Shown here: positions 3,685-19,641 of the stretch, piece by piece | Position numbering within the stretch: position 1 is the first letter of the stretch | Layout: each line of letters begins with the position of its first letter | Virus record (IMG/VR): IMGVR_UViG_3300020177_000966 | DNA: 64,000 nucleotides | Direction: 5' to 3' (one strand) | DNA from: a virus | Taxonomy: Duplodnaviria > Caudoviricetes | Made by a program: the position numbers and the translations under genes | The notes under the pieces: model-generated | Told to the model about the DNA's origin: nothing | What the model saw: the letters and a program-made list of their open reading frames with translations, nothing else | Databases searched by the model: none

Positions 3685-5172
3685 TTAAATTGCGCTCAAT
3701 TGCTTAATTGTAATTGTTCCTCTCATAGCTGAATGTACTGTACATTGGTATGCATAGTTTCCGCTAATATTAGCCGGAATCTTCCAATATAATGTTCCGC
3801 TTGTTTTTCCTTGTGCATCTGATCCTATTGATTCTGTACCATCAGTTGCAACATGTACTAATCCTGTGTCATATGCACTGCCGCCACTTGTTTCAATTTG
3901 GAATGGATGACTTGCTAATGAAGAATTATTTAGATCAAATGCAATAGTACATCCTGACAATGCGTAAATAACTGGATCTTCTGTTGCTCCATATTGATCA
4001 AATTTATATCCGTTACTACTATCTGCTGTAACTGTTAAAGTTGTAATAGCACCGTATGCCATTCTATCAATTGTTTGGGGAACATCAATCCAATTTGTTC
4101 CGTTGTATGCCATAACCGAACCGTTAGCCGGTGTTGTAATTACAACATCAGTTAAGCTATCTAGACTATTAGTTCCGGAATAATCAATTGTAACTGTATC
4201 TCCAGATACAGTTGTTGTAATATTTGTTCCGCCTGCAATAGTAAGTGTATCTGTAGTGTTATCTGCTTCAGCAAGACCTGTGTCAGCTTGTACATTACTA
4301 AATGCATTTTGGTTTGCTTCACCTGAATTTGGCGAGCCAACATAATTAATTGTTAAAGTATCTCCTACAATTGCAGTTGCAATATTTGTTCCGCCTGCAA
4401 TAGTAAGTGTATCTGTAGCACTATTTGCTGTAGTATTTCCAACATCGGACGCAACAGTTTCAAATAAATTTTGTACACTACCTGAACTAACTGTTGTAAA
4501 TGTAAATCCGCCTGCACCATCAGTAGTTAATACTTGTTCGGCACTACCGTCTTCGATACCTAAATCAGTTAGTGCTGAAGGAATAGTAGGTTTATTGTTT
4601 AAGTTATTATAATTTGTAAAGTATGCACTGTCAAACCCGTCCAATGTATCAGCATCTAGACCAGCGCCACCTGATGAAACGTCAGTACCTGGTGCCCATT
4701 TGCCGCCATCCCATTTCAAAACATTTCCAGTTTGTGGTGGTTGCGAGACTGTGTCTACATCAGTTAAGCTATTAATGTTACCAATGTATGCAACTGAAGC
4801 TAAAGGACTAGTGTAATTTGTAATTGCTCCGCCACTTGTATCCATTAATAATTTATGCCAAGCTCCTGCGTGTGCAACATGTACAGTACCAGTTTGGTGA
4901 TTGTGCATCAATGCACCGTGATAAGTTGAAGGACTAACTTGGTTTAGTTGGTTAGTTGTAGCAACATGAAATGCAATTTTATTAATTTTTGTGTCGTCGT
5001 TAGGAACATCAAGCTCTAAGTTTGAGTTTACAATATCTTTTAAGTTTGTGCCGTCGCCTAGTGCGCCGTACACTTCGTCAATGTTTGCATTAACTTTAGT
5101 TGCGCCAGATCTTAAACTGTCGCCAGTACCGTCGTTTGCCGCTGTACCTATATTAATTGTTGATTTTGCCAT
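3685..5172 (-). CDS. Tail-fibre-like protein with C-terminal cupredoxin (plastocyanin-like) domain (495 aa)
   Basis: N-terminal INIGTAANDGTGDSLR fibre-attachment motif, SLTDV-type repeats, and C-terminal HPFQI...YQCTVHSAM type-1 Cu ligand pattern. Confidence 0.75.
   Translation of the reverse strand: MAKSTINIGTAANDGTGDSLRSGATKVNANIDEVYGALGDGTNLKDIVNSNLELDVPNDDTKINKIAFHVATTNQLNQVSPSTYHGALMHNHQTGTVHVAHAGAWHKLLMDTSGGAITNYTSPLASVAYIGNINSLTDVDTVSQPPQTGNVLKWDGGKWAPGTDVSSGGAGLDADTLDGFDSAYFTNYNNLNNKPTIPSALTDLGIEDGSAEQVLTTDGAGGFTFTTVSSGSVQNLFETVASDVGNTTANSATDTLTIAGGTNIATAIVGDTLTINYVGSPNSGEANQNAFSNVQADTGLAEADNTTDTLTIAGGTNITTTVSGDTVTIDYSGTNSLDSLTDVVITTPANGSVMAYNGTNWIDVPQTIDRMAYGAITTLTVTADSSNGYKFDQYGATEDPVIYALSGCTIAFDLNNSSLASHPFQIETSGGSAYDTGLVHVATDGTESIGSDAQGKTSGTLYWKIPANISGNYAYQCTVHSAMRGTITIKQLSAI
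4219..4418. repeat. Intragenic 38-bp exact direct repeat (4219-4256 and 4381-4418)
   Basis: AATATTTGTTCCGCCTGCAATAGTAAGTGTATCTGTAG occurs twice, 162 bp (54 codons) apart, encoding TDTLTIAGGTNI. Confidence 0.9.
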
Positions 5173-5175
5173 TCC

Positions 5176-5688
5176 TTACACCTTATCAAATGTTATATTT
5201 GTATTATCAAAATACGTTGTTGTTGCATCAAAAGTATTTATTCCAGATGCTTCCTCTGAGGATACATCTGCGACAATAGCAGGAGGAGTAAGTTGATGTA
5301 TTGTCCTTGCATAAGTTGCATGGTAAATTAATTTCGCTCCTGTCCATGTTCTTGATGTTGGAGACACCATGACTTTACAAATACTTTCGTCTACAGTTAC
5401 ATTTATACTTACTAATTCTTGGTTAATGCTAGAACGCCCAAAGATAGATGCAACTGCTCTATCGGGTCTAGCAACAACAGAAAGTTGCATAATTTCTTTT
5501 TCATTTGAATCAAATTCTACAGTGATTTGGTAAATGGCGCTACTAAAGTCGCCAACGTGCCATTTGTCCATTACACTGTTGTTATGAACTCCAATCCAAT
5601 TTCCTTTGTAACTAAAACTACTCTGCTGGGGTAGTAAAATAGTGTTGTTTAGCCCTTTTGAGAATAGACCGTTTAATGTTTTATTCAT
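5176..5688 (-). CDS. Hypothetical virion-associated protein (170 aa)
   Basis: GGAG RBS, late-promoter motif at 5707-5713, C-terminal FDxxxxxFD motif. Confidence 0.6.
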   Translation of the reverse strand: MNKTLNGLFSKGLNNTILLPQQSSFSYKGNWIGVHNNSVMDKWHVGDFSSAIYQITVEFDSNEKEIMQLSVVARPDRAVASIFGRSSINQELVSINVTVDESICKVMVSPTSRTWTGAKLIYHATYARTIHQLTPPAIVADVSSEEASGINTFDATTTYFDNTNITFDKV

Positions 5689-5706: not shown

Positions 5707-5713
5707 TATTTAT
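5707..5713 (-). promoter_or_regulatory. T4-type late promoter (ATAAATA)
   Basis: GATAAATA lies about 20 nt upstream of the start at 5688. Confidence 0.6.
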
Positions 5714-5743: not shown

Positions 5744-6307
5744 TTATCGTAGATCAACTAAGCTATGAGCAAATTGATAAAGATTATCAAACACTTCTGT
5801 TTGTTTTTTAAGGTCTTTATTAGCAAAAGAATCTAATTTTTCAATGGTTTCTTTTCCGTGTCCAGTACGCAACAATACTGGGCGAGCTTTAGCTTTAACT
5901 GCGGCTTTAAGATCTGTAATTTTGTCACCAACGTATACACCGTTTTTCCAATCTACTCCAACTTCGGCAGCGGCACGTTTAAACATTCCTATATTGGGTT
6001 TTGCATAAATGTCATCTTTTAAATTAGTAGTTGAATAATATAATCCATTAATATTTTTACAACCAACTTCGCCTAATAACTGTAACATATAGTTATGCAC
6101 TACATCAACATCAACTGCATCACAAATACCTTTCATAATGCCGGCTTGATTTGTTAAAATAACAACATCATATCCTTTGTCTCGAATCATTTTTATTGCT
6201 TCTAAACTTCCTGGAATAGGTTTAAATTGTTCAGGTTTAGTTACATATGTACCAATATCTTCGTTGATAGTTCCGTCTCGGTCTAATCCAATTACCGGTG
6301 TACTCAT
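5744..6307 (-). CDS. gmhB: HAD-IIIA phosphatase, D,D-heptose-1,7-bisphosphate phosphatase-like (187 aa)
   Basis: Motifs DRDGTINED, TNQAGI, KPNIGM and GDKITDL. The Zn-binding CxH...CxC loop is replaced by YYSTTNLKDDIYAKP. Confidence 0.8.
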   Translation of the reverse strand: MSTPVIGLDRDGTINEDIGTYVTKPEQFKPIPGSLEAIKMIRDKGYDVVILTNQAGIMKGICDAVDVDVVHNYMLQLLGEVGCKNINGLYYSTTNLKDDIYAKPNIGMFKRAAAEVGVDWKNGVYVGDKITDLKAAVKAKARPVLLRTGHGKETIEKLDSFANKDLKKQTEVFDNLYQFAHSLVDLR

Positions 6308-6310
6308 TTA

Positions 6311-7171
6311 TTAAGGTCTCCATCTATCATCTGACCAACCTATCTTATCAGAATTAAACCATTTTAAATCTTCTAAGTAGATAAGATCTTTATCTATATA
6401 CTGTTGTTTCCAAAAATCTACAAATTCTTTTGTCTCGGAAGTAAGTGATTCAACATGTGTGTCAACAAACTCTGCGGCTTCGTGTGTTAAAGGATGAAGT
6501 TCTGGCAGTAGCATATGTTGCGAGTCTGCTGTTCTATCAGGAACACTCTTAGGTCTGGTATCTGCAAATGCTTGATCAGTTCCAAAGTTTAATGCATTTA
6601 GTATTGGTGGGCAAGATGTTTGTATGTCGTCTTTATATGATTCTAGTACTGCCCTAACATCCTCTAACTCTAATTTAGAATTAGTTTTATTAAACTCAGG
6701 CGATAGTTCTTCCCAACCTTCTACTGGTTCTCTAAATGCTGTTGATACTACTTTACACCCAATACTAGACAATGCTTTATGTGTTGAACTTATAGTAGCA
6801 CAGTCTCGCATAACACAATGAATCATATCAGCCCATTGCCATTTAGTTTTGTAATAAAAATTATTAAGCACCATGCCTTCGTTATCTAAAGTTAACCCGC
6901 TAAAGTTACCTGGTGTCCACCAACCATGACCCATATGATATCTATCTTCACGAAACATACTGCTCCACTGTAATAATATAATATCATCTTTATTAAATTT
7001 ATGAACAGTGTTTGCTTCCCACAATCTCATATTAATATATTGATTGCCCGCTCCACTTCTAGCCCAGTTACTTCCTTGATAACCTTTAGATTTATATTGA
7101 TGAATTAGAATATCTGCCCAGGTTGGATAAAAGTATTGGGTTAGACTACACCCGAACGCAAATATTCTCAT
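6311..7171 (-). CDS. Hypothetical protein, SGNH-hydrolase-like N-terminus (286 aa)
   Basis: FGCSLT block-I-like motif, WADIL, N.ARSGAGNQYI. Start overlaps the halogenase stop (ATGA). Confidence 0.55.
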   Translation of the reverse strand: MRIFAFGCSLTQYFYPTWADILIHQYKSKGYQGSNWARSGAGNQYINMRLWEANTVHKFNKDDIILLQWSSMFREDRYHMGHGWWTPGNFSGLTLDNEGMVLNNFYYKTKWQWADMIHCVMRDCATISSTHKALSSIGCKVVSTAFREPVEGWEELSPEFNKTNSKLELEDVRAVLESYKDDIQTSCPPILNALNFGTDQAFADTRPKSVPDRTADSQHMLLPELHPLTHEAAEFVDTHVESLTSETKEFVDFWKQQYIDKDLIYLEDLKWFNSDKIGWSDDRWRP

Positions 7172-8646
7172 ACTAATCTCCGCAATAAGTCTAACATTAT
7201 CTTATGCGGAATAGATTTAATTTGATCAAATTGAATTTTTTGCTGGCATTGACGATTAACAAATTCTTGTGCGTCAGGTGGTAATGTATTGTATTGTTTT
7301 AAAATACTATTAGTATCAAATAACCCTAATCCATGCATTACAATTGCAAAATTATATTCATTAAACAGAATTTTTTTTGTATGAGAAGTTAAATCATCTT
7401 CAATGGGCATTCTGTATTTCCACATTTTTAAATTTTCTTCAAGGGTAGAAGGTAAAGGAGTTTCTGCAACAGCTCTCCAAAAAGGAGTATCACGTCTTGG
7501 TGTAATATAATGTAGTGCAATAAAGTCTCTAATATTTTCCATTATTGCGTTTACTTCTACATTATATCTATTAATTGTTTGATTATTGTAATTGACGATA
7601 CGCTGTGCTAATAACATACTTTGATTAATACTAGTTCCAATACTACTGGCTTCTAAAGGTTCTACAAAGTTTGCACTAAGGCCTATTGCACATACATTGC
7701 CAATCCAAGGTTTATCAATTGCTCCTGCTTCAAACTTAATATGTTTTGCTACATCGATACCATGTCCTAAATATTTTTCAACTTCTTCTTGTGCTTCTTC
7801 GGCTGTAATAAAATCACTATCAAAAATATAACCGTTGCCTTTACGGTCCCAAACCGGTATGCGAAACATCCAGCCTGCATTCATTGCTTTTGCCAAAGTC
7901 CAAATAGGTATTTCGTCGCCGCGCGGATCAATAGCATTAGTATATTCTGTTGGAAAAACTATTGCTTCTTTCATTTTTAGATATTTGCTGTAACTTTGCC
8001 ACTTACCGCCCACAGGCTCTATAAGCAATCTTCTAAATCCTGTACAATCAATGTAAAAGTCATAGTCGTATGTCTGTTTTTCGCCTTCAATTGTGTCAAT
8101 CTGATTGTTTTCGATAACATTTACTTTTATAATTTCATCATCAATGATTTGGCATCCTTTGTTTAATGCAAAATTAGTGAGATAGTTATTAAGTTTACTA
8201 GTATTAAAATGGTATTGACTAACTCCGGTATCGTTAGGACGTTCTTCAATAAATTTACTGAATGGAGTATGATTACGCCAAAGGTAATCACCTGTTAAGT
8301 CGCGAGGATCAACATTTTCACCAATAAGTTTAGCATATGCCATTGGCATTCCTAAATGTTTAGGTACAAAAGGTTCGTGTACATTTTGAAGGTAAGGTTT
8401 TTCTCCCCAATCTTCAAACATGATACCTGTTTTAAATGTTCCGTCAACTTCTTTAAGCATTTCTCCTGCTGATATGCCAACATGTTCCATAAATGCAGTC
8501 CAGTGTTCGGTAGAACCTTCGCCAACACCGATTGTTCCTATCTTTGTTGAACGTATTACATCAACAACGTAAGAAGGAAAACTAGTTTTTAATGTTAAGG
8601 CAGCTACAAATCCTGCTGTGCCGCCACCTACTACTGCTATTTTCAT
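7168..8646 (-). CDS. Flavin-dependent halogenase, PrnA/tryptophan-halogenase family (492 aa)
   Basis: VVGGGTAG FAD motif, IGVGEGS, TFKTGIMF with the catalytic Lys position, WMFRIP (WxWxIP variant), FVEPLEASSI. Confidence 0.88.
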   Translation of the reverse strand: MKIAVVGGGTAGFVAALTLKTSFPSYVVDVIRSTKIGTIGVGEGSTEHWTAFMEHVGISAGEMLKEVDGTFKTGIMFEDWGEKPYLQNVHEPFVPKHLGMPMAYAKLIGENVDPRDLTGDYLWRNHTPFSKFIEERPNDTGVSQYHFNTSKLNNYLTNFALNKGCQIIDDEIIKVNVIENNQIDTIEGEKQTYDYDFYIDCTGFRRLLIEPVGGKWQSYSKYLKMKEAIVFPTEYTNAIDPRGDEIPIWTLAKAMNAGWMFRIPVWDRKGNGYIFDSDFITAEEAQEEVEKYLGHGIDVAKHIKFEAGAIDKPWIGNVCAIGLSANFVEPLEASSIGTSINQSMLLAQRIVNYNNQTINRYNVEVNAIMENIRDFIALHYITPRRDTPFWRAVAETPLPSTLEENLKMWKYRMPIEDDLTSHTKKILFNEYNFAIVMHGLGLFDTNSILKQYNTLPPDAQEFVNRQCQQKIQFDQIKSIPHKIMLDLLRRLV

Positions 8647-8653
8647 TTTTATC

Positions 8654-9229
8654 CTATTGGTCGAATGTGTACCAACCTGTTATAATATACTTAACACCTT
8701 TGTAGATAGGATTACCTCGATGTGGATGCGTAAACGATGTAGGAAAAATACAAAGTTTTCCAGGCTCAGGTTTACATTTAACTCCTTGGTATAAGAATTC
8801 AGTTTCACCGCCTTCTTCTACAGCATTTAAGTAAACGGTATATGCAAGCACTCTCGAACCTGTACTAATATCAGCATTTTCACAATGCCACATATGATAA
8901 CCTTGATGAGGTTTAGTTTTTTGAACACTCATCCCTTTAGGACTATGTTGCATAACATGACCTAAACTTTCATATTTTTTTCTATACTTTTCTTCATATA
9001 TTTTATTTAATTGTGTATAAAAGAACAAGCATAAATCTTCATCAGCATGATACATCGAATTATGATTAGCCCAATCCATGTATATGCGTTCATCTTGATT
9101 CTTTATACTACTTTGTAAAGTAGTTATTTGCTTTGAAGACATTTCTTCGAATCGTTTAATTACTTGTCTACACCAGTCAATTGGAAAAGCGTTTGGATAT
9201 TCTTCGATTCCATCAAAATTACCTTCCAT
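8654..9229 (-). CDS. 2OG-Fe(II) oxygenase, prolyl-hydroxylase-like (191 aa)
   Basis: GYHMWHCE (HxE), RVLAYTVYLN, GGETEF, FTHPHRG, KYIITGW. Confidence 0.85.
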   Translation of the reverse strand: MEGNFDGIEEYPNAFPIDWCRQVIKRFEEMSSKQITTLQSSIKNQDERIYMDWANHNSMYHADEDLCLFFYTQLNKIYEEKYRKKYESLGHVMQHSPKGMSVQKTKPHQGYHMWHCENADISTGSRVLAYTVYLNAVEEGGETEFLYQGVKCKPEPGKLCIFPTSFTHPHRGNPIYKGVKYIITGWYTFDQ

Positions 9230-9237
9230 AGTCTCTC

Positions 9238-9939
9238 CTAAATAAAAAATTGTTGATTTAATCTATATAAATCATTAGTAAACATCTGCGGTTTTACATA
9301 CGCACTATGCAAAACTGCCTGATTGTACAATACCATTCTATTAAATTTCATTTGTGCAATGCCTAACAGCTTCCAGTCGCCAATACTATCTGAAATATAA
9401 CGAGTTACTGGAATTTTTCCTTGTACATCTAATGTGTGTGTTACACTAGGGTCGTCATAATATGTTTTCCCCCCAAAAGAATAAAAACTTGTTCCGCCAT
9501 TACACTCATTTGCTGTGTTTAAATAGATTGTAGATGCAAGATTCATTCCACTAGTATTATCCATATGAGGACAAACAGGAGGTAAATTGTTAGTTTGCAT
9601 AACATTTACCATAAATGTTGCATTCATAAAACTATGCTCCATATATTGTGGAGGATAAGCAGTCATTACTTCTGGAAAATACTGTCTTGCTAATTGATCA
9701 TATATCCATGACATACTAGATAATTCATAAAACGCATTAATACGATGTGCTGGATTATTGCCACGTATACGTCTATTTGTAGATGCAGGTATATCTAAAG
9801 CAAGCTGTCTAACATCATATGGATTTTCATAGAAGTCGTCTACTATTAATACTTTTACGTCACCGTAATGAACTAGCTGTGCATCATAATTTGGATTGAT
9901 AGCAAAAATTTTTTCTTCGTCGATAATTTTTTTATCCAT
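9238..9939 (-). CDS. DUF6445-like putative Fe/2OG oxygenase (233 aa)
   Basis: DDFYENPYDVRQLAL, PHMD (HxD), YLN...GGTSFY, FNRMVLY...LHS. Confidence 0.7.
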   Translation of the reverse strand: MDKKIIDEEKIFAINPNYDAQLVHYGDVKVLIVDDFYENPYDVRQLALDIPASTNRRIRGNNPAHRINAFYELSSMSWIYDQLARQYFPEVMTAYPPQYMEHSFMNATFMVNVMQTNNLPPVCPHMDNTSGMNLASTIYLNTANECNGGTSFYSFGGKTYYDDPSVTHTLDVQGKIPVTRYISDSIGDWKLLGIAQMKFNRMVLYNQAVLHSAYVKPQMFTNDLYRLNQQFFI

Positions 9940-10543
9940 GATCGTCTCCGATTAATTTTTCTTTTATAATAAAGTTTGCACTAATTGTAGCACGAACTTT
10001 GTTAGATTTGTTTTCCGAAACGTAATGTTCTAAGTTACTAGGAAAATAGATAATTTCTCCCTCTTTTAAGGGAGGAGTTACCCTATTATTAAATTTAAAA
10101 GGTTCTGAACTTAGCCTAGGAAGTCCAGCTTGGTGAAAATAATCGTATTGATTCTTATAAAATACAAAATTTCCGCTATCTGGCGGAGTGTACATCATGT
10201 ATGCACAACTAATAACACTTTCTCCAGCATGATTATGAATTTCCTGATATTGATTTGAAGAATATCTATTCAACCAGCACTCTACTCTGTATTCTTTTGG
10301 TAGATCTAGATTAAAGATTTCAATATAATCATTTAATCCAATAACTGCTGATTGTATAAACTTTTGCCATGGTAATTTATCTGCTTCTCTATTACCAAAA
10401 GTAGTATCTACATTACTATACCAAGTTGGAATTTTAAAAAAGTGAGAATCATCTTCGAGTACGTCTTTAAAATCTTCTCGAATAGCATCATGGTTAGAAA
10501 GAGATGTTTTATAAACTGGTATAGAAAATAAATTAACATGCAT
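9932..10543 (-). CDS. Putative 2OG-Fe(II) oxygenase, TIGR02466-like (203 aa)
   Basis: NLFSIPVY, CWLNRY, QEIHNH (HxH), YFPSNLEHYV, RATISANF. Confidence 0.8.
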   Translation of the reverse strand: MHVNLFSIPVYKTSLSNHDAIREDFKDVLEDDSHFFKIPTWYSNVDTTFGNREADKLPWQKFIQSAVIGLNDYIEIFNLDLPKEYRVECWLNRYSSNQYQEIHNHAGESVISCAYMMYTPPDSGNFVFYKNQYDYFHQAGLPRLSSEPFKFNNRVTPPLKEGEIIYFPSNLEHYVSENKSNKVRATISANFIIKEKLIGDDHG

Positions 10544-12372
10544 CAGTTTTTCATTTCAATTAATTTACCATATTCAGGCAAATAACAATATTCCATTTCG
10601 CTACTATAAAGTGTGCGTACTGCATCGTCTAATGTTTCAACTAAAGGCTCGCCTCCTAAGTTAAAGCTAGTATTAAAGATAATTGGCACACCTGTTTGTT
10701 CGTAAAATTCTTTAATTATTTCATAATAATGTTTATTTTGTTCTTGAGTCACTGTTTGAATACGACAAGTTCCGTCAACGTGAATAATACTTGGAATTTT
10801 TTCAGCAACACCGGGTTGGCAATTCATTGCATACATCATATGAGGCGACTGTTCCAAACCGCGCATATCAAACCATTCATGTGCATGTTCAGCAAGAATA
10901 GTTCCTGCAAATGGGCGGAAATATTCGCGACGCTTAATGCGATTTACATGATCTTTTCCATTTAGGTCTGTTGGATCATATAGAATACTTCTGTTACCGA
11001 GTGCTCTTGGACCATTTTCTGATCGTCCTTGGAACATTGTAACAATTTTTCTGTCTCTAATTAACTCAACTACTTTTTTATTGTCAGCGTCAACAACTAC
11101 AGCACCGTATTTGTTTGCAACTTCTTCAATTTCTTTATCTGAATGACAATAAGGAAATCCTTCATAAATTGTTTCTGTATACGGACGTACTTTTTTATCT
11201 TTAGTAGTTTGATGATAAACTAATAATGCGGCACCAATTGCTGTTCCAGCATCACTACTAACAGGCTCTACATATAAATTAATACCTTCTTTATTTAATT
11301 TGTCAAGATACCAATAATTAGCAACACAATTAAGTGCATAGCCACCACTTAGTACAACATTTTTGTTACCGCTCATTTCAACTGCCTTAAAAATAAGATT
11401 TAAAACTTCTTGCTGTGAACCTTCTTGTACAGCATATGCCATATCTCTACGGTTTTCTAATGTTGTAAGATCAACTCTACTGTTAACTACGTCTTGAGAA
11501 GTTTCAAGATATTCATATTTTCCTTCATTTACTACAGCCGCATTAGGATATGTAGGAATAATTACACTTCTATCACTAGTACGCCATTTGCCGCCATTTC
11601 CATCTGTATAAATTGGAGGAATCTTATCATTAGGTTTGCCATAAGGAGCAAGACCCATTGTTTTGCCAGCTTCAATTGGCTGAAATCCACAATACTGTGT
11701 TACTGCTTCGTAGGCCTTTGTAATACCTGCACTATCATCTAGCACAAGTTCATGGAATCCTTCTTCCCCTTCTCTTTCTGAAGGAATATATTGAACCCTA
11801 GTTCCAGGATAAGGACCGTTTCCGCCCTGATGTTTATATAATGTTTTAATAGCATCAGGATAAGAACAATTAAAAATACTTTCACATTCCCAAGTCATAA
11901 ACTCATCATTAAATGTTCCCGTAGAAATATTCATAGGAATAAAGGTGCCGGCACCGTCAACTACTACTGCAACTGCTGATTCAAAACCACTTCTATAAAA
12001 TGCACATGCCGCATGTAGTTTATGATGTACATAACTCATATCAATTACTTGTCTATGATTATGATGTCCGTCAGGAGTATATGCATTATCTGATCTATCA
12101 ATAAGTCCTAACTTTCTTGCAAGACCAGTATACATGTCTCCACCGCTAAAGTCAATTCTACTTGATTCTTCTAACGGTTGTGTATGAGCAACGACTAGAT
12201 AATCTAATTTATCAGTGTAATCTAAAAACTTAGTCATTGCGGCTAGTGGGCCGCCATCGTATTTTTTACGTGTTAATCTTTCTTCTTCGATAGCAAAAAC
12301 AATTTCACCGTCTTTTAATAAAACTGCGCCACCGTTGTGACCTCTTGTAATTGCTCCAATCCACTGTGTCAT
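10543..12372 (-). CDS. O-carbamoyltransferase, NodU/CmcH/TobZ family (609 aa)
   Basis: EEERLTRKK, HHKLHAACAF, VVDGAG, SGGYALNCVAN, DAGTAIGAA, GPRALGNRSIL, KRREYFRPFA, HVDGTCRIQTV, NTSFNLGGEP. Confidence 0.92.
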   Translation of the reverse strand: MTQWIGAITRGHNGGAVLLKDGEIVFAIEEERLTRKKYDGGPLAAMTKFLDYTDKLDYLVVAHTQPLEESSRIDFSGGDMYTGLARKLGLIDRSDNAYTPDGHHNHRQVIDMSYVHHKLHAACAFYRSGFESAVAVVVDGAGTFIPMNISTGTFNDEFMTWECESIFNCSYPDAIKTLYKHQGGNGPYPGTRVQYIPSEREGEEGFHELVLDDSAGITKAYEAVTQYCGFQPIEAGKTMGLAPYGKPNDKIPPIYTDGNGGKWRTSDRSVIIPTYPNAAVVNEGKYEYLETSQDVVNSRVDLTTLENRRDMAYAVQEGSQQEVLNLIFKAVEMSGNKNVVLSGGYALNCVANYWYLDKLNKEGINLYVEPVSSDAGTAIGAALLVYHQTTKDKKVRPYTETIYEGFPYCHSDKEIEEVANKYGAVVVDADNKKVVELIRDRKIVTMFQGRSENGPRALGNRSILYDPTDLNGKDHVNRIKRREYFRPFAGTILAEHAHEWFDMRGLEQSPHMMYAMNCQPGVAEKIPSIIHVDGTCRIQTVTQEQNKHYYEIIKEFYEQTGVPIIFNTSFNLGGEPLVETLDDAVRTLYSSEMEYCYLPEYGKLIEMKN

Positions 12373-13103
12373 ACTTTATTTTCCTTTATAAGTTTTAAAA
12401 CTTTACTTCTATATCTTGCATTTTCAAATGCTTCATAACATTCTGCTAACGGTGTTGGCAAAAATCTCTTTGCTTTAAGATTTTTAAATCCTAAACACTG
12501 CATTACAGGCCCGGTTTTAGATTCAAATAATTTAGCACTATCAAATCTAACTAATCTAACTTTCTCTGTTGTGTTAAATTTAAAGTAACACAACGTATCT
12601 CCTTGTTTTATGTCAAGTTCTCTAACATTTTTTTTAAATTTAAATGCAGGACGTACTGGTCTAATCCAACTTGCTATATTATATGTACCTGCTATACCCA
12701 TTGTGTCTCTTGAAAACTGACTTTCGCTATAATATGGAGGAAGCTGTGTCATTGTTAACGGTTTTTCACTAAAAAATAGAAAACAAGGATGATCTAATTG
12801 ATAAACACCTTCAGGATTTGGCTGTCCAATATAATTCATTAAAAAGTTAGGTTCAACATCATACTTAGAAACTAACTCTTGTCTTTCATAATCTAATTTA
12901 ATATGAAAATCAATAGGACTTTTTGCAGTAAAAGTATTTTTAGTTTCGTCAACAATTGCAGGACATAAACTTGCGCCTAAACCAAAAAATTCTCTAGCAT
13001 TTAAGTCTTTATATACTGTATTAGGTTCGTAGTACTTTAATTCAGATACAAATTCTTGGTTATCTGGTACATTTATAACTGGTGACCAATATACTGTATG
13101 CAT
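12369..13103 (-). CDS. Hypothetical protein of the tailoring operon (244 aa)
   Basis: Coupled to both neighbours by overlapping start/stop codons. CPA...NTF..SP pattern; no confident family. Confidence 0.6.
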   Translation of the reverse strand: MHTVYWSPVINVPDNQEFVSELKYYEPNTVYKDLNAREFFGLGASLCPAIVDETKNTFTAKSPIDFHIKLDYERQELVSKYDVEPNFLMNYIGQPNPEGVYQLDHPCFLFFSEKPLTMTQLPPYYSESQFSRDTMGIAGTYNIASWIRPVRPAFKFKKNVRELDIKQGDTLCYFKFNTTEKVRLVRFDSAKLFESKTGPVMQCLGFKNLKAKRFLPTPLAECYEAFENARYRSKVLKLIKENKV

Positions 13104-13693
13104 TAATCAAACTCTACTTCGTAAATAAAGTCACAAACAAACGCTTTACGTTCTTGTAAGGTAGGATATACTCCGTGAAATACCTTGCCGTCCATAATAA
13201 TAACATCTCCAGCAATACACTTTACAAGATCGCTTACTAATTCTCCAGTTACTGGATTTTGCGTAATACATTTTAGTTTACCTGCTAAAGGTTTATCGTC
13301 ATGTAAATCTATAGTGTTCAAAAACATTACACTAGTTAATTTTCTTAATGGTAAATGTGTGTGCATTCCGCTATACGTACCTTCAGGATAACGTATCCAC
13401 CAACATTTTTCAAATTCAATACTTTTAAATCTATATGGAGCAAGTGTTTGCTTTATAAAATTAATATATTCTTGTTGCGAATCGACTTGGTATGCATATT
13501 TCATTTCTGGATTGTAACGTAGTATTGCGCCGCCGTGGTCTGTATGTTCTTGCAAACCTAAGTTGTCATCAAATAAAGGTAAAAACTTTTCATAGTTTGC
13601 AAACTTAGATTTTTTAATCCAATAGTCTGCAATTTGTCCTTGTGAACTTAAAAACCAAAAGTCTTTATTGCCTTGATATAACTCTTCTAACAT
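13103..13693 (-). CDS. Putative Fe/2OG-type oxygenase (196 aa), paralogue of 13687-14313
   Basis: YSGMHTH (HxH), LTSVMFLN, GDVIIMDGKVFHGVYPT, RKAFVCDF. Confidence 0.7.
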   Translation of the reverse strand: MLEELYQGNKDFWFLSSQGQIADYWIKKSKFANYEKFLPLFDDNLGLQEHTDHGGAILRYNPEMKYAYQVDSQQEYINFIKQTLAPYRFKSIEFEKCWWIRYPEGTYSGMHTHLPLRKLTSVMFLNTIDLHDDKPLAGKLKCITQNPVTGELVSDLVKCIAGDVIIMDGKVFHGVYPTLQERKAFVCDFIYEVEFD

Positions 13694-14313
13694 ATTGATG
13701 TCTCATAGTCAAAATCGCATACGAATACTTTGCGTTGATTTAACGTAGGATAAGTCCCGTGATATACTCTGCCATCCATAATAACACAATCACCTGCTTT
13801 TGGTACGTGTTGTAAGTAATTAGTTGAATATTCTAAAGGTTGTAGTGTAGTTAAAGATCCTGCTAACGGGTATTCTTGGCTAGTTTGAGTATTTGTTAAA
13901 AACAAAACTGCTGTTAATTGCTTGCCTGGAGTGTGACAATGTAATCCACTGTATGCTCCGGGTGCATAATCTACTCCCCACGCCTTTTTAAATTTGTTAA
14001 CTTTAATAGGTAATTCTGCACAACAAATTTTAATAAATCTATGAAAGTCCAATGTTGGATCTAAATCAATTGGATACGCCATATCTGTTTTATAGTGTAA
14101 ATATCCGTTACCATAATCTTTATGACTGTTGTCGTATACACCTTCTTCAAATAACGGTAAAAACTTTTTCCAAGTAGGATAATGATTACCTGTAATTACC
14201 CATGTTTCTAAAGTCTGTGCGGCAGCGATTTGCGGACGAAAGCTACTATCAAACAAATCATTAAGAAACGCTTCTGGGGAAGATTTATCTAATCTGCTTG
14301 GACTATCTGACAT
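13687..14313 (-). CDS. Putative Fe/2OG-type oxygenase (208 aa), paralogue of 13103-13693
   Basis: YSGLHCH (HxH), LTAVLFLT, GDCVIMDGRVYHGTYPT, RKVFVCDF. Confidence 0.7.
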   Translation of the reverse strand: MSDSPSRLDKSSPEAFLNDLFDSSFRPQIAAAQTLETWVITGNHYPTWKKFLPLFEEGVYDNSHKDYGNGYLHYKTDMAYPIDLDPTLDFHRFIKICCAELPIKVNKFKKAWGVDYAPGAYSGLHCHTPGKQLTAVLFLTNTQTSQEYPLAGSLTTLQPLEYSTNYLQHVPKAGDCVIMDGRVYHGTYPTLNQRKVFVCDFDYETSIC

Positions 14314-15353
14314 TACTGGCCAGTCCTTCCTAAAATTTGAGCTGGTTGTTTATTAGAGTGTACTACTCCATGAGTTGGACACACATCTCCTTGTTCTTGT
14401 GGAATATAATCTCCTGAATAACTTCTCGGTTTACCTAATCGTTTGCGTACACTAGTAATAATTGCTTTAAAGTTATCGTCGTCTAGTTCCATAACTTCAT
14501 CATTAAATCGTTCAATTTCCTCTTCCATTGTAAGTCTAATAGGACTAAACTTACGTTTTCCTTCACCTAGATCAATAATATCAAAATCTGGCGAATTTGG
14601 ATATGAAATATTAATAGGATATGTACTTCCAATAACACTGGTGCATGTTGTACCTAATGCCTTTGCCATATGTTGTCCCAAACTATCACAACCAATAAAA
14701 TGATCAGCAATTTGAATAATACTTGACCAAACTCTTACATCTGGAATTTGTGGAACAGCAATAGGTACAGTTGGATTCTCTTCAATTTTAATAGGAAATT
14801 CACTCATTATAATTACAGCATAATCTTCACGTAATTCTTTAACAATTCTAACTACGTCATTTAAGTGAAAACTTCTTGATGTTCCGTCAACAATAAAGTC
14901 TCCCATATTTTCTGCTGTGCGGCCAAAGGGCTGAAACACTACTACTTTGTCTTTTCCTGTAACAGCCTTTACTTCTTCAACTACTTTATATCCTTGAACT
15001 AGTTCGTGTTTATTCATATAAATTTTTGGATCGCCTACTTCTCGCAATCCTTTATTATTAATTGCAATATCAAATGCTTGTGCTAAACTACATTTTTGAT
15101 TATAATATTCCCATACTCTGTATGGTTCAGGTGTAATACAATCTCTATCTTTGATATAGTCTCTAAATAAATTTTTATGCCAATGGTCATACGCTAGTTC
15201 GTGTAGATGTGGATGTCCTTTATAAAAGTCCATTCCTCCTTCACAAACAATAATAAAGTCTTGATCTTCTTCGTATAGTTTTTCAAATGCAGGAATTGAA
15301 CAAACAACTCTACCTGCACCACCGTTCATAAAATATGCTTTTTTTCGTGACAA
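14313..15353 (-). CDS. GT-B glycosyltransferase, GT9/ADP-heptosyltransferase-like (346 aa; GTG start)
   Basis: GGAGRVVCSIPAF (cf. GGLGDxxxxxP) and IIQIADHFIGCDSLGQHMAKALG (cf. ADLFIGxDSGxxHLAAALG). AGGAG RBS. Confidence 0.72.
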   Translation of the reverse strand: MSRKKAYFMNGGAGRVVCSIPAFEKLYEEDQDFIIVCEGGMDFYKGHPHLHELAYDHWHKNLFRDYIKDRDCITPEPYRVWEYYNQKCSLAQAFDIAINNKGLREVGDPKIYMNKHELVQGYKVVEEVKAVTGKDKVVVFQPFGRTAENMGDFIVDGTSRSFHLNDVVRIVKELREDYAVIIMSEFPIKIEENPTVPIAVPQIPDVRVWSSIIQIADHFIGCDSLGQHMAKALGTTCTSVIGSTYPINISYPNSPDFDIIDLGEGKRKFSPIRLTMEEEIERFNDEVMELDDDNFKAIITSVRKRLGKPRSYSGDYIPQEQGDVCPTHGVVHSNKQPAQILGRTGQ

Positions 15354-15377
15354 AGTATTACTCCTATTGTATAGAAA

Positions 15378-15383
15378 TATTTA
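15378..15383 (-). promoter_or_regulatory. Late promoter (GTAAATA) heading the tailoring-enzyme operon
   Basis: TAAATA lies about 25 nt upstream of the GTG start, just downstream of a terminator. Confidence 0.55.
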
Positions 15384-15418
15384 CTTTACAAACAAATTAT
15401 GAATGGCGGATGTGGCAT

Positions 15419-15447
15419 AAAAAAACCCCTGCATTGCAAGGGTTTTT
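15419..15447. terminator. Intrinsic terminator, bidirectional type
   Basis: AAAAAAACCC CTGCATTGCA AGGGTTTTT hairpin flanked by A and T tracts, downstream of gene 15469-16257. Confidence 0.75.
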
Positions 15448-15468
15448 ATTTTTAAATTTTATTAATTA

Positions 15469-16257
15469 TTATTTTTTGCCAGCTACTTTTTGTGCCGCTA
15501 CTTTAACATCAATAGCATATGCGCCATCTCTGTATGGATCATTAGGATCAGATGCTTCTTCCGGATCTCTCATATCCTTAGGCATATTAGGAAACATCAT
15601 AACTGCTTGCCAAGGTTCAAATCCTCTACCTTGAAGTAATGCAGGAAGATCACGCAATTTTTGTCTAAAATCTAACCATGCAGTTTGAATTGATTCTGGT
15701 GCGTCTGTTTGACCTACTTTAGCATCTGTTTCATGTAACATTTGATCACGTAAGTCTCTAACTTGTTGCCATGTTAGGTCCATCTTAGAACCTGTTGCGG
15801 CCCAATCTCTTACACCAAGATTAAATGTTTCTGTTTCAAAGTTATATGTAATGTCAGCATCGTTATACACATCACGTGGCTCTAACTCTAATGTATGTTC
15901 TACATCAGGAAATCCATCTGGTGCGTCCCATAATACTTCCCACTCTCTTGCACGTCTAAACTCAATTAAGTCTTCACGTCCACAATCATTACCAATTTCA
16001 CACAATAGTGGATTTTCTTTGCAATCAACTGTTACTCTTGTAATGTCTTGGGCCGCTGGTCTTTCTAAGTCTCTTTTTAACCATAAGCACCATCCTGATT
16101 CTTTACCGTAATCCTCTGATGATGTATCATTATTAACTTCGAAAGTTAAGAATTCAGGACCGACATATGTAAACGTTCCGGTCTTACCTTGTGTAAAACT
16201 ATTCTTTCTCCATTCGTCCCACACTGGGTATGTAAATTCTTTTCTAATTGTTCTCAT
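15469..16257 (-). CDS. Tail-fibre assembly chaperone-like protein (262 aa)
   Basis: C-terminal WQQVRDLRDQMLHETD...W..FRQKLRDLP motif typical of phage tail assembly chaperones. Confidence 0.7.
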   Translation of the reverse strand: MRTIRKEFTYPVWDEWRKNSFTQGKTGTFTYVGPEFLTFEVNNDTSSEDYGKESGWCLWLKRDLERPAAQDITRVTVDCKENPLLCEIGNDCGREDLIEFRRAREWEVLWDAPDGFPDVEHTLELEPRDVYNDADITYNFETETFNLGVRDWAATGSKMDLTWQQVRDLRDQMLHETDAKVGQTDAPESIQTAWLDFRQKLRDLPALLQGRGFEPWQAVMMFPNMPKDMRDPEEASDPNDPYRDGAYAIDVKVAAQKVAGKK

Positions 16258-16276
16258 TTTATATAACTCCTAAAAG

Positions 16277-16283
16277 TATTTAT
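16277..16283 (-). promoter_or_regulatory. Late promoter (ATAAATA)
   Basis: GATAAATA followed by an AGGAG RBS before the start at 16257. Confidence 0.6.
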
Positions 16284-16290
16284 CATTGTT

Positions 16291-17127
16291 TTACATAAAT
16301 GTTATTCTAACAACACCTGATCCGCCTTGGCCTGATCCACCTGCACAACATTTTGCCCAGTTATTACAGTACGAGCTTACACCAGCTTGTCCGCCGCCTG
16401 CTGGCCAGTCAATGTGACAACCACATGAGCACCATGCTTCATTAGTTACACCTACTTGCATTTTACCAAATAAAGGTGCTGATCCTGAGAATGAATAAGT
16501 GTACACACAGTGACAGTAACCATGTCCTGGTTCTGTTCCTGATGTACCCATCATTCCAAAGTCTGCTCCAAATATACCACAAACGTTACAGTTAGAACAT
16601 GTATGTGAGTGTCTTGGTCCCCAAGCATCTCCATTACACATCCATCCTCCGCAACCACCTGTTGTACAAAAATTACTTAAATTGTGTCCGTTAACATATG
16701 ACTTACATCCCATACCTGCTGTACAAGTATGTGATTTACCACAAGGCCAACTACCGCCCGCACATACTGTGTACTGACATCCTGGACTTGTACTTACTGT
16801 TTTAGAAGCGTAATTGCCTCCGGCGCCGCCGATTGTAAACATACAATAGTTACAGCATGTGCTACCTGGGCCGCCACCGCCGCCTGACCAAATTTCAAAT
16901 GTTACAGTTGATGCTCCGTCTGGAACGCACCAATAACAACATTTGCCGTTTGCTTGCTCACAACATCCACTTTGTCTAGCACAACTATGGCATGCCATTC
17001 CGCGCTCATTGTATATCCACTGCACTCCCATGTTATTGCCGTTTCCGTGAGCAATATCTGAGTTTTGCACTGCACTATTAACAATACTGTCTGTATTAAC
17101 TTTTTTATAACTTGCGTATGTAGCCAT
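16291..17127 (-). CDS. Cys/Gly-rich virion-type protein, paralogue 1 (278 aa, 29 Cys)
   Basis: VTFEIWSGGGGG...GGAGGNY...GGSGVVRIT glycine-rich fibre-tip scaffold with Cys-rich insertions. Confidence 0.8.
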   Translation of the reverse strand: MATYASYKKVNTDSIVNSAVQNSDIAHGNGNNMGVQWIYNERGMACHSCARQSGCCEQANGKCCYWCVPDGASTVTFEIWSGGGGGPGSTCCNYCMFTIGGAGGNYASKTVSTSPGCQYTVCAGGSWPCGKSHTCTAGMGCKSYVNGHNLSNFCTTGGCGGWMCNGDAWGPRHSHTCSNCNVCGIFGADFGMMGTSGTEPGHGYCHCVYTYSFSGSAPLFGKMQVGVTNEAWCSCGCHIDWPAGGGQAGVSSYCNNWAKCCAGGSGQGGSGVVRITFM

Positions 17128-17139
17128 TAATTTCTTTCC

Positions 17140-17976
17140 TTATGCATATGTTACTCTTACTAAGCCCGATCCGCCCATATTTCCACCGGCACAACATTTT
17201 GCCCAGTTACCGCAATAACTAGATTGAGCTGTTTGGCCACCGCCTGCTGGCCAGTTAGTATAACATGCACAATTACACCATGCTTCTGCGTTTGATCCTG
17301 CAAACATTTTTCCTACAAATGGAGCAACACCTGTTTGTCCCCAGTCGCCTGATTTACACTGACATCCGCCATGTCCGCCTGACACTCCTGTTGATCCCAT
17401 AATTCCAAAATCTGCTCCAAATATACCACAAACGTTACAGTTAGCACATGTTTGTGTATGACGTGGACCCCAAGCATCTCCATTACACATCCAGCCCGGA
17501 CAACCACCTGTTGTACAAAAGTTACTTAAATTATGTCCGTTAACATATGATTTACAACCCATGCCAGCCGTACAAGTATGTGACTTAGAACACGGCCATG
17601 TTCCTCCAGCACAAATTGTGTACTGACATCCAGGGCATGTACTAATTGATCTTACAGCATAGTTGCCGCCTGAGCCACCTGCTGAATGCATACAATAGTT
17701 ACAGCATGTGCTACCAGCACCTGCGCCACCACCTGACCAAATTTCAAATACTACTTTTGATGCGCCCGAAGGTACAGACCAATAGCAACATTTACCATTT
17801 GCTTGTTCGCAACAATCACCGGCATCAGCACAGTGTTGGCATGCCATGCCGCGTTCGTTAAATACCCAAAAAGTATGGTACTTATTTCCTGCTCCTGGAC
17901 CTAATTTTTCTGCGCCGACACTATTATCTTGGAAGTTGTCTGTTGTTAGTGTTTTATAACTTGCGTATGTAGCCAT
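17140..17976 (-). CDS. Cys/Gly-rich virion-type protein, paralogue 2 (278 aa)
   Basis: Same Cys/Trp spacing as its neighbours; shares SHTCTAGMGCKSYVNGHNLSNFCT. Confidence 0.8.
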   Translation of the reverse strand: MATYASYKTLTTDNFQDNSVGAEKLGPGAGNKYHTFWVFNERGMACQHCADAGDCCEQANGKCCYWSVPSGASKVVFEIWSGGGAGAGSTCCNYCMHSAGGSGGNYAVRSISTCPGCQYTICAGGTWPCSKSHTCTAGMGCKSYVNGHNLSNFCTTGGCPGWMCNGDAWGPRHTQTCANCNVCGIFGADFGIMGSTGVSGGHGGCQCKSGDWGQTGVAPFVGKMFAGSNAEAWCNCACYTNWPAGGGQTAQSSYCGNWAKCCAGGNMGGSGLVRVTYA

Positions 17977-17988
17977 TATTCTTTTTCC

Positions 17989-18828
17989 TTACACATAAGT
18001 AATCTTTACAATTCCTGATCCGCCTTGGCCTGATCCACCTGCACAACATTTTGCCCAGTTATCACAATAACTAGATGTTCCAGGAGTTCCGCCACCTGCA
18101 GGCCAATTAATATGACATCCGCAAGCACACCATGCTTCGTTAGTTGCTGTTGCTACGTGCATTCCAATACCTGCGGCAGCACCTGACCAACTTGTTTGTC
18201 CATGACATCTACAAGTAGTAGTACCTGCTTTAATACCAGCAGTACCGGTAAATCCAAAGTCTGATCCAAAAATTCCGCAAATGTTACAGTTACCACAACT
18301 TGTTACAGCATGTCGCTGACCCCAAGCATCGCCATTACACATCCAGCCGCCACAGCCGCCGTCTGTACAAAAATTACTTAAATTATGTCCGTTAACATAT
18401 GATTTACAACCCATACCTGCTGTACATGTGTGTGATTTGCCACAAGGCCAACTACCACCTGCACAGACACTATATTGGCATCCTGGATTAGTGTCAATTG
18501 TTTTAATTGCGTAGTTTCCGCCGAAGCCACCAATAGCAAACGAACAGTTATTACAACAAGTATGTCCTGGGCCTCCGCCGCCACCGGACCAAATTTCAAA
18601 GGTTACTTTATAAACATTATTTGGAACACACCAATAACAGCATTTTCCGTTTGCTTGCTCACAACATCCACTTTCTCTAGCACACTGGTGGCAACGCATG
18701 CCACGTTCGTTATAGATCCATTGAACTTTTCGACAAGCCCCTGCACCGGGAGCTAACTTGTCCCTTGTAATAACTCCAGCTGGAATTCCTTCTGATGTTA
18801 TCTTTTTGTAACTTGCATAACTTGCCAT
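17989..18828 (-). CDS. Cys/Gly-rich virion-type protein, paralogue 3 (279 aa)
   Basis: Same Cys/Trp spacing as its neighbours; shares SHTCTAGMGCKSYVNGHNLSNFCT. Confidence 0.8.
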   Translation of the reverse strand: MASYASYKKITSEGIPAGVITRDKLAPGAGACRKVQWIYNERGMRCHQCARESGCCEQANGKCCYWCVPNNVYKVTFEIWSGGGGGPGHTCCNNCSFAIGGFGGNYAIKTIDTNPGCQYSVCAGGSWPCGKSHTCTAGMGCKSYVNGHNLSNFCTDGGCGGWMCNGDAWGQRHAVTSCGNCNICGIFGSDFGFTGTAGIKAGTTTCRCHGQTSWSGAAAGIGMHVATATNEAWCACGCHINWPAGGGTPGTSSYCDNWAKCCAGGSGQGGSGIVKITYV

Positions 18829-18849: not shown

Positions 18850-19299
18850 TTATACAGTGTAAATACGCCAGCCGTATGTGTCGCCTGAAAATACCACTTC
18901 AAATGCCGCTCCTTCGGAGTTTACAGTCAAATCAGCCGCATCACCTTGAATTAATTTTCCGTTTCTACCAAGTGTTAGTGCATTGCTGTCAAATGTTTTT
19001 CTTAAATCAAAAAATCTAACAACATCGCCTACTGCCGGTGATCCTGGTAACGTAATCGTAAATGGTCCGCCGTTGGTATCACAGAACAATTGTTGTCCTG
19101 ATGCCGCGTTATACGCTGTTGTAACTGTAGTAGCGTTAAGAACACCTACTGGAAGCCATGCTGTACCGTTATACAATTCTAAGTTATTCAACTCAGTATT
19201 GAAACGGATTGAACCTGCTCCTGCATCTTGTGTTCTCTGTGCCGTAGTTCCGAAAGGAATTGTTAGACCTGGTGAACCTACTGAAATTCTTCTACCCAT
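18850..19299 (-). CDS. Small tail-fibre connector-like protein (149 aa)
   Basis: PFGTTAQR..GSIRFNT fibre repeat and DTNGGPFTITLPGSPAVGDVV...NALTLGRNG proximal-fibre-type domain. Confidence 0.7.
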   Translation of the reverse strand: MGRRISVGSPGLTIPFGTTAQRTQDAGAGSIRFNTELNNLELYNGTAWLPVGVLNATTVTTAYNAASGQQLFCDTNGGPFTITLPGSPAVGDVVRFFDLRKTFDSNALTLGRNGKLIQGDAADLTVNSEGAAFEVVFSGDTYGWRIYTV

Positions 19300-19314: not shown

Positions 19315-19641
19315 TTACGCCGCTGGTACGGCTGTTTCAATTCCCATTACTACTGCATTGCAGTTAGCGCCGGATGATCTTGTAACAAGCAATTTGCCTG
19401 TGTCCAATACAATACCTGTTCTTTCAAGAACGCCGTTTGGTCCGATTGATGTATCATATTCTAGATACTCACCGCCACCTGGTGTTGCACTGGTTGCTAC
19501 TGCTAATCTTATTTGAACTGTGCTTGAACTTCTATTACAAAAAGAAACAGTCACAACGCTATAAGTATCGGCAGGAACAGTATACGTTGTTGTATCCGTA
19601 TTTGCTGTAAGATCACTAATTCCTAAAATTCCTGATGCCAT
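19315..19641 (-). CDS. Small beta-sandwich-type virion protein (108 aa), family member 1
   Basis: YTVPA...CN...IVL.G pattern shared with 29878-30207 and 39848-40195. Late motif CTAAATA at 19664-19669. Confidence 0.7.
   Translation of the reverse strand: MASGILGISDLTANTDTTTYTVPADTYSVVTVSFCNRSSSTVQIRLAVATSATPGGGEYLEYDTSIGPNGVLERTGIVLDTGKLLVTRSSGANCNAVVMGIETAVPAA

Follow-up and report, generated by a model that had tools for sequence, protein, structure and literature searches.

Glycosylation of adhesins by enzymes of the heptosyltransferase fold is known from TibC and AAH, autotransporter heptosyltransferases that use ADP-heptose and act in the cytoplasm before the adhesin is assembled. Viruses can also glycosylate their own virion proteins, as in the capsid and tail of mycobacteriophages and the capsid of chloroviruses, where glycosyltransferase (GT) genes lie beside structural genes, have late expression and target proteins of the virus itself. 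Two putative glycosyltransferases have likewise been read as a sign of capsid glycosylation (PMC11256854). Here we describe an operon of 11 genes (5744-15353) in a stretch of 64,000 nucleotides (nt), referred to below as the window, from IMG/VR virus record IMGVR_UViG_3300020177_000966, which tblastn places among the marine cyanomyoviruses. The operon encodes a GT9-like glycosyltransferase, a carbamoyltransferase and further putative tailoring enzymes, and it directly follows genes for three cysteine- and glycine-rich proteins and a tail-fibre chaperone. Across related phages the GT9-like and carbamoyltransferase genes are constantly paired with these Cys/Gly-rich fibre-tip genes, a pairing that was not found in the searchable literature. 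The explanation we favour, at somewhat less than even confidence, is that the products of these genes, expressed late, synthesize a carbamoyl-heptose glycan and attach it to the fibre-tip proteins of the virion; our confidence goes no further because the acceptor is deduced solely from position, timing and the missing lipopolysaccharide (LPS) acceptor.

The precedents for this explanation, TibC/AAH-type heptosylation of adhesins and virus-encoded glycosylation of virions, are analogies. The phage enzyme has the GT9-type GT-B fold of TibC, which is among its top fold matches (TM about 0.5), but identity between the two is only about 10%, and here a Gly/Cys-rich fibre tip takes the place of the beta-helical autotransporter as presumed acceptor. 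With the LPS heptosyltransferases WaaC and WaaF it has in common the fold and a C-terminal D(S/T)...H nucleotide-sugar motif; unlike these, it is encoded by a phage, behind a late promoter and amid fibre genes, and its cyanobacterial hosts lack the heptose/3-deoxy-D-manno-oct-2-ulosonic acid (Kdo) core. A heptosyltransferase encoded together with a carbamoyltransferase of the NodU family brings to mind Pseudomonas aeruginosa, whose inner core has 7-O-carbamoyl-heptose. Mycobacteriophages and chloroviruses rely on different GT families and on nucleotide sugars of the host, whereas the phage described here carries genes of a sugar-nucleotide pathway together with candidate carbamoyl, acyl, oxygenase and halogenase tailoring functions, and the neighbours of these genes encode fibre tips, not capsid proteins. 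The gene families themselves, the cyanophage "LPS" clusters and the dioxygenase/halogenase clusters have already been published. The same families form T4-GC 302-308 in the "LPS gene clusters" of P-SSM2 and S-SSM7, and also the tandem dioxygenase/halogenase array of Syn9; the earlier papers on such cyanophage clusters assigned them host-surface or metabolite roles, and the constant pairing with fibre tips went unremarked there.

Linkage of fibre-tip and enzyme genes across phages

From about 1 to 50 kb of the window every gene lies on the minus strand and the products are T4-like structural proteins; all features of the window given below by their coordinates are on this strand. Two small fibre-associated genes, p108 (19315-19641) and tail149 (18850-19299), precede the three adhesin-like paralogues (17989-18828, 17140-17976 and 16291-17127), which are followed by the chaperone-like gene (15469-16257), the GT9-like gene (14313-15353) and, further into the operon, the carbamoyltransferase gene (10543-12372). 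Two sets of IMG/VR loci were collected for comparison, 74 through the adhesin family (set 1) and 77 through a GT9-like protein 45% identical to that of the window (set 2), with some contigs common to both. Set-2 GTs were 44-89% identical to the GT of the window, and distant GT homologues used as two locus queries returned few or no loci. In set 1 the order p108, tail149, three adhesins, chaperone, GT9-like gene and carbamoyltransferase gene was found wherever the contig was long enough, and in both sets (about 150 loci) the adhesins stood beside the GT and carbamoyltransferase genes at every locus with enough flank. The same linkage occurs in five cultured cyanophage lineages (S-SSM7, Sf-FS3, S-CAM1/3 and P-SSM2). 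In P-SSM2 and S-CAM3 the adhesin family profile matched Cys-rich proteins, with 10% Cys, whose genes lie directly upstream of the GT gene, and all phage records with an adhesin match also have the GT (16/16). A megablast search of the region against phage records returned no match.

In five set-2 loci (L093, L154, L157, L161 and L162) the GT/SGNH/carbamoyltransferase unit lies on the strand opposite the adhesins and chaperone and still adjoins the adhesins, so the neighbourhood has outlived rearrangement. These five loci also have two chaperone-like genes interleaved with the adhesins. Four other set-2 loci are minimal: nothing but the GT and carbamoyltransferase genes separates the adhesins from the structural gene that comes next. 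The constant core thus has four components, adhesins, chaperone, GT9-like gene and carbamoyltransferase gene, which are always linked, whereas halogenase homologues are also found among non-structural genes; heptose genes are added to this core in cultured relatives. The original prediction, made from the sequence of the window, had tied the whole enzyme set to the Cys-rich triplet and proposed synteny in relatives as a check. Synteny was borne out for the four core components in every adequate locus, but the wider tie did not hold, as the oxygenases, halogenase and SGNH-like protein are dispensable. The region is best explained as a single module for fibre tips, conserved in its lineage and carried by a cyanomyovirus of the T4 type.

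Adhesin homologues are also carried by contigs of 347 and 375 kb, and the parent IMG/VR record of the window has 167,518 bases at a CheckV completeness of 46%. Together these values suggest that the lineage may have an unusually large genome, or that the 347- and 375-kb contigs may be chimeric.

Predicted fibre-tip proteins and their chaperone

The three adhesin-like paralogues have 278-279 amino acids (aa) and are 62-70% identical to one another, with 10.4-10.8% Cys, 18% Gly, 3.2-3.6% Trp and 2.5-3.2% His. They had been described as rich in Cys, Trp and His, which is apt for Cys and, with a moderate increase, for Trp, but His is not enriched. Each has about 30 cysteines, 20 of which are invariant across 33 aligned homologues, and identity in the family is 57-85% across aligned metagenomic homologues, many of which carry the glycine-rich domain PF21722. 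The AlphaFold model of the adhesin was poor (predicted local distance difference test score, pLDDT, 59.5). The best PDB matches of this low-confidence model were to the fibre of cyanophage Pam3 (7YFW/7YPX, E about 6e-6), followed by the Bxb1 tail tip and then by the TNF-like plus Gly-rich domains of ALK/LTK. Pam3 gp24 combines a TNF-like domain with a glycine-rich tip domain. This small fibre binds its receptor through the glycine-rich tip, depends on a separate chaperone for its assembly and is similar to gp38, the adhesin of phage S16 (PMC9608196). The arrangement in the window appears similar to that of Pam3 gp24-gp25 and T-even gp38, in that small predicted tips with a putative glycine-rich-motif domain are followed by a separate chaperone; it differs in its three tandem paralogues, in the roughly 30 cysteines of each protein and in the unusually high conservation of the family.

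The chaperone-like protein (262 aa) matches Pfam Phage_tail_APC above the cut-off (E 2.2e-6) as well as PHROG tail-fibre assembly families, and ATAAATA is found 25 nt upstream of its gene. Its position, and that of the three paralogues, upstream of the operon are as originally predicted. Based on the Pam3-like match of the model, the PF21722 domain in homologues and the adjoining Phage_tail_APC chaperone, the paralogues are predicted to be fibre-tip proteins and not precursors of ribosomally synthesized and post-translationally modified peptides (RiPPs). The label "RiPP-like" that had been given to the system was accordingly dropped, the candidate substrates being conserved 278-aa fibre-fold proteins rather than leader-core peptides, and Pfam scans of the region's proteins found no RiPP recognition element (RRE) or PqqD-type domain.

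The module is headed by a long tail-fibre gene (19674-24527) with ATAAATA 33 nt upstream of its start. Its 1617-aa product is 33-51% identical, in segments, to the 1477-aa fibre of S-SSM7. The genes for p108 and tail149 precede the adhesins in all relatives' loci, and tail149 matches many PHROG tail and tail-fibre N-terminal families. Over its 149 aa, tail149 shares 50% identity with the last 150 residues of the S-SSM7 1477-aa fibre, a fibre tip module that is a separate gene in the window and fused in S-SSM7. On the far side of the operon, a 495-aa protein (3685-5172) has a T4 gp9/gp10-type N-terminus.

The GT9-like glycosyltransferase

The first gene of the operon encodes a 346-aa protein from a TTG start and had been called a GT9-like transferase, which its fold confirms. 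The AlphaFold model (pLDDT 89.6; predicted template modelling score, pTM, 0.88) has a GT-B fold with two Rossmann domains nearest to GT9 structures, and all top 30 Foldseek matches in the PDB are GT9 proteins (3TOV, WaaF, WaaC and TibC among them, E 3e-10 to 1e-6). At the sequence level the relationship is faint, with a phmmer search against PDB sequences giving nothing meaningful and the GT of the window missing the gathering score of PF01075 (E 0.26, 11 bits vs a 22-bit cut-off). A family of 58 members was then collected from 1.8 billion representatives and aligned. PF01075 was matched at E <= 0.01 by 24 of the 58 (best 2.4e-8), and the family profile found its best PDB matches in WaaF and WaaC (E 0.06-0.1), where the D(S/T)..H motif aligned. 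The C-terminal nucleotide-sugar motif D(S/T)G..H is present, with D223 and H228 invariant in the family and S224 nearly so. A complex prediction of the GT9-like protein with the adhesin scored 0.00, which speaks neither for nor against binding.

The GT9-like protein has about 4000 cluster representatives in metagenomes, and its homologues are found outside cyanophages as well. These are 25-30% identical and lie in tail or neck modules, in stretches from which sugar-pathway genes are absent. For example, SBP1, an N4-like phage of Vibrio, has a homologue between two tail-fibre genes, in Aeromonas phage HJ05 one separates a tail-fibre-like gene from the sheath gene, and in another T4-like contig one stands between gp15 and gp16. 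Vibrio and Aeromonas produce ADP-heptose for their own LPS. This wider tie of the GT9-like family to tail modules was also not found in the searchable literature.

A probable phage-encoded heptose pathway

A second enzyme cluster is present in the same genome (L007:6754-12661), 2.8-8.7 kb past the low end of the window and about 10 kb away from the operon. It is convergent with the last fibre gene, downstream of gp15, and encodes a NUDIX protein, two Trp-type halogenases, an HldE-like kinase/adenylyltransferase fusion (PfkB plus cytidylyltransferase), an HldD-like NAD-dependent epimerase and a cupin. With the halogenase of the operon this makes three in the genome, two of which are beside ADP-heptose genes. 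Of the four enzymes of the ADP-heptose pathway (GmhA, HldE, GmhB and HldD), the HldE-like fusion, a GmhB-like protein encoded in the operon and the epimerase are therefore represented. In S-SSM7, Sf-FS3, S-CAM3 and P-SSM2, kinase, nucleotidyltransferase, isomerase and epimerase genes lie within the GT/carbamoyltransferase cassette itself.

Cyanobacterial LPS contains neither heptose nor Kdo (PMC4515613), so the classical acceptor of a GT9 enzyme is absent. The HldE-like, HldD-like and GmhB-like genes in the same genome are best explained by a phage that is predicted to make a nucleotide-activated heptose which its host does not use in LPS. Taken together, heptose-free LPS in cyanobacteria and the ADP-heptose-making hosts of the Vibrio and Aeromonas phages fit a donor supplied by the phage where the host has none, and an acceptor other than the LPS core.

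Operon structure and predicted late expression

The 11 open reading frames are separated, from low to high coordinates, by gaps of 3, -4, 7, 8, -8, -1, -4, -1, -7 and -1 nt, and the gaps that bound the operon are 115 nt upstream and 55 nt downstream. A tightly coupled set forming its own unit, as originally predicted, is thus what the region contains, and the predicted terminator and late-type GTAAATA upstream of it and late promoter at 5707 downstream are all present as sequence features. The terminator-like hairpin (15419-15447) has a 12-bp stem followed by seven U and a folding energy of -15.2 kcal/mol (z = -3.2 vs shuffles); it was missed by a generic terminator scan and confirmed by folding. 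Judged by eye, a hairpin with a T-run stands at this position in about half of 36 distinct relatives, with unrelated sequence.

The late-promoter-type GTAAATA of the operon (15378-15384) lies 30 nt 5' of the TTG start of the GT9-like gene, which is itself preceded by an AGGAG ribosome-binding site. The published late motif of cyanomyoviruses is NATAAATA (PMC2984593), and we looked for it about 25-35 nt 5' of the start and for its retention among relatives, using an alignment of 36 distinct chaperone-to-GT intergenic regions. The site in the window reads AGTAAATA, as for a T4-type late promoter. In the alignment ATAAATAT.T is found at a fixed distance from the GT start in 32/36 distinct relatives, the motif being at least 90% conserved between variable flanks. 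The aligned site is ATAAATA in 32/36, GTAAATA in 2/36 (including the window) and ATAAGTA in 2/36, and CTAAATA lies ahead of the GT operon in S-CAM3 and Sf-FS3. ATAAATA has 11 occurrences on the window's minus strand against 3 on its plus strand, and it stands 23-33 nt upstream of several structural genes, in agreement with the published motif. The next structural unit has one such site (5707-5713), 24 nt before the start of the gene at 5176-5688. The conservation of ATAAATAT.T upstream of this gene makes late expression of the operon in this clade a well-supported prediction.

The start codon of the GT9-like gene is TTG or GTG in 35/36 distinct relatives, which suggests that its translation may be kept deliberately low and would fit an enzyme required in small amounts. 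Metatranscriptome runs labelled as salt marsh, which come from eight or more studies, contain 37-91% of the sampled words of the operon (5744-15500) as contigs, a range to which carry-over of DNA may have contributed.

Other enzymes of the operon

The carbamoyltransferase and the halogenase of the original prediction were both confirmed on curated profiles. The former is a NodU/CmcH-type O-carbamoyltransferase of 609 aa that passes the cut-offs of both domains, Carbam_trans_N (1e-28, 101 bits vs 24) and Carbam_trans_C (6e-59, 199 bits vs 27). Its match to the NCBIfam NodU model (1.7e-39) is below that model's cut-off, and it is 66-67% identical to its orthologues in S-SSM7 and Sf-FS3. The halogenase (7168-8646, 492 aa) is a flavin-dependent, Trp-type enzyme (Pfam Trp_halogenase PF04820, 2.8e-91) whose best solved relatives are PyrH-type Trp 5-halogenases (1e-59). 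Aligned with PyrH it retains GGGTAG and the catalytic Lys in TFKTG and Glu in EPLE, and the WxWxIP motif is altered to WMFRIP.

Five Fe/2-oxoglutarate (2OG) oxygenases had been proposed, of which three pass Pfam cut-offs. These are a prolyl-hydroxylase-like protein (8654-9229, 191 aa; 2OG-FeII_Oxy_3, 3.4e-13), an oxygenase-like DUF6445 protein (9238-9939, 233 aa; DUF6445, 5e-16) and a 203-aa protein (9932-10543; 2OG-FeII_Oxy_5, 2.5e-15). The DUF6445 protein has an H-M-D ... H pattern, and its homologues in Sf-FS3 are annotated as P4H-type dioxygenases. The remaining two proteins, of 196 aa (13103-13693) and 208 aa (13687-14313), are sub-threshold in Pfam and match only PHROG phrog_81 (2.5e-8 and 9.9e-12), with H-x-H replacing H-x-D/E, so that the assignment of this pair is weaker. 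The 208-aa protein has an H-C-H ... H pattern, and the 196-aa protein resembles it in the H-x-H region.

The last gene of the operon (5744-6307) encodes a putative HAD-IIIA phosphatase of 187 aa in which the DxDxT motif reads GLDRDGT. Its earlier description as GmhB-like holds in that the HAD-IIIA domain model is above its cut-off and the closest model is that of GmhB, but this model, NCBIfam NF006506 (3.9e-39), gives 134 bits, below the 178-bit cut-off. The preceding gene (6311-7171) encodes a 286-aa protein that had been called SGNH-like. It has no Pfam, PHROG or NCBIfam profile match, but sequence motifs (N-terminal FGCSLT, GAGN, and D-S-Q-H at 216-219) and Atlas leads to DUF6071 and Lipase_GDSL at low shares are consistent with the name. 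The 244-aa product of the remaining gene (12369-13103) matches only phrog_17480, of unknown function; an Atlas lead to DUF6065 appears in 23% of one cluster, and the gene is present in only some relatives.

Proposed fibre-tip glycosylation and its alternatives

If the operon acts on the virion, the phage would make ADP-heptose late in infection, and the GT9-like enzyme would transfer heptose onto fibre-tip or other tail proteins as they fold on the chaperone. The carbamoyltransferase would next decorate the sugar, as would the SGNH-like enzyme where it is present. Hydroxyl groups that serve as acceptor sites, or further changes to the glycan, may come from the 2OG oxygenases, and the halogenase would be a lineage-specific extra. 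S-glycosylation or S-carbamoylation of the cysteines was also considered as a form that the modification might take. A broader proposal, possible and on the whole doubtful, is that T4-like cyanophages have a self-contained route of fibre-tip glycosylation, from phage-made ADP-heptose through the viral GT9 to the Cys-rich adhesins and then carbamoylation, that some lineages also hydroxylate and halogenate the protein or the glycan, and that the same GT9-like family (phrog_8954) glycosylates the tail proteins of unrelated phages, those of Vibrio and Aeromonas and other T4-like ones.

Several points weigh against the proposed modification of the virion. Receptor-binding and receptor-modifying genes also adjoin in lysogenic-conversion cassettes, so linkage by itself does not name the acceptor, and the close loci come from related phages and are non-independent samples. 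The oxygenases, the halogenase, the SGNH gene and the 244-aa gene are optional and lacking from the minimal cassettes, and in S-H38 and P-SSM2, which have the closest homologues of the halogenase, these have denV, nrd and further non-structural genes as neighbours. The fold search cannot separate LPS-type GT9 enzymes (WaaC and WaaF) from the protein-type TibC. By eye, R15, which is nearly invariant in the GT family, stands at what we take to be the position of the catalytic Asp13 of WaaC. No GmhA/SIS gene was found in the 167-kb record, which is 46% complete according to CheckV and so perhaps incomplete. The prediction of late timing, strengthened by the motif in 32/36 relatives, is weakened by P-SSM2, where the GT operon is preceded, after a hairpin, by a sigma-70 consensus promoter, TTGACT-17-TATAAT (L005:13835-14000), and there is no obvious late motif before the GT operon of S-SSM7. 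The P-SSM2 promoter is near-perfect and overlaps a partial late motif, and timing may thus differ among lineages.

Remodelling of the host envelope is the published reading of the "LPS cluster" in P-SSM2 and S-SSM7 (PMC1079782, PMC3037559) and in S-SCSM2R (PMC12801897), and we consider it unlikely here, if a serious contender. The enzymes would build or alter a host surface glycan, masking receptors against superinfection or freeing progeny from debris, and their place next to receptor-binding genes would reflect joint exchange of the two in one host-range cassette. This would agree with the sigma-70 promoter of P-SSM2 and with the fold search, in which the top named matches are the best-characterised GT9 enzymes, those that transfer heptose to LPS. 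A late-type promoter conserved in the clade would, however, leave little time for export to the envelope before lysis, and profile scans found no flippase, polymerase, lipid-carrier or membrane-protein genes in the operon. The heptose/Kdo inner core, the normal GT9 target, is also missing from cyanobacterial LPS, and solo GT9-like genes lie inside tail and neck modules in phages of heptose-making hosts.

It is less probable still that the product is a small molecule, a halogenated, hydroxylated and heptosylated compound derived from an amino acid and made during infection. NodU/TobZ-type carbamoyltransferases and 2OG oxygenases do tailor glycosylated antibiotics, the best solved relatives of the halogenase use free tryptophan, and both this genome and S-SSM7 repeatedly have halogenase genes next to genes for heptose. 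Iyer et al. proposed such a role for the tandem dioxygenase/halogenase clusters of cyanophages (PMC2938197). However, both a scaffold-forming enzyme (nonribosomal peptide synthetase, polyketide synthase or ATP-grasp) and an exporter are absent, the genes are placed and promoted like those of the virion, and the constant partners of the GT and carbamoyltransferase are fibre-tip proteins, the halogenases and oxygenases being missing from minimal cassettes. Hypermodification of DNA, with the GT and carbamoyltransferase decorating modified bases of the phage genome, is very improbable. T-even phages glycosylate their DNA with GT-B enzymes, and varied tailoring enzymes act on hypermodified bases, but the fold of the GT matches GT9 and not DNA glucosyltransferases, and the late promoter and surroundings point to fibre rather than replication genes. 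This reading was set low on the finding that the 167-kb record has no deoxynucleoside monophosphate (dNMP) hydroxymethylase or thymidylate-synthase family gene.

Implications for cyanophage biology

The genes of this module are abundant in the ocean and have been filed for twenty years as "LPS genes" or stuffer DNA. The broader proposal, with heptose on the fibre tips and halogenation in some lineages, would, if true, amount to the first viral protein heptosylation and the first halogenated virion component. If fibre tips are decorated in this way, the roles of phage heptose, carbamoyl and halogenase genes would become testable on cultured phages, and virion glycans could shape the host range of cyanophages, their stability or their escape from host defences.

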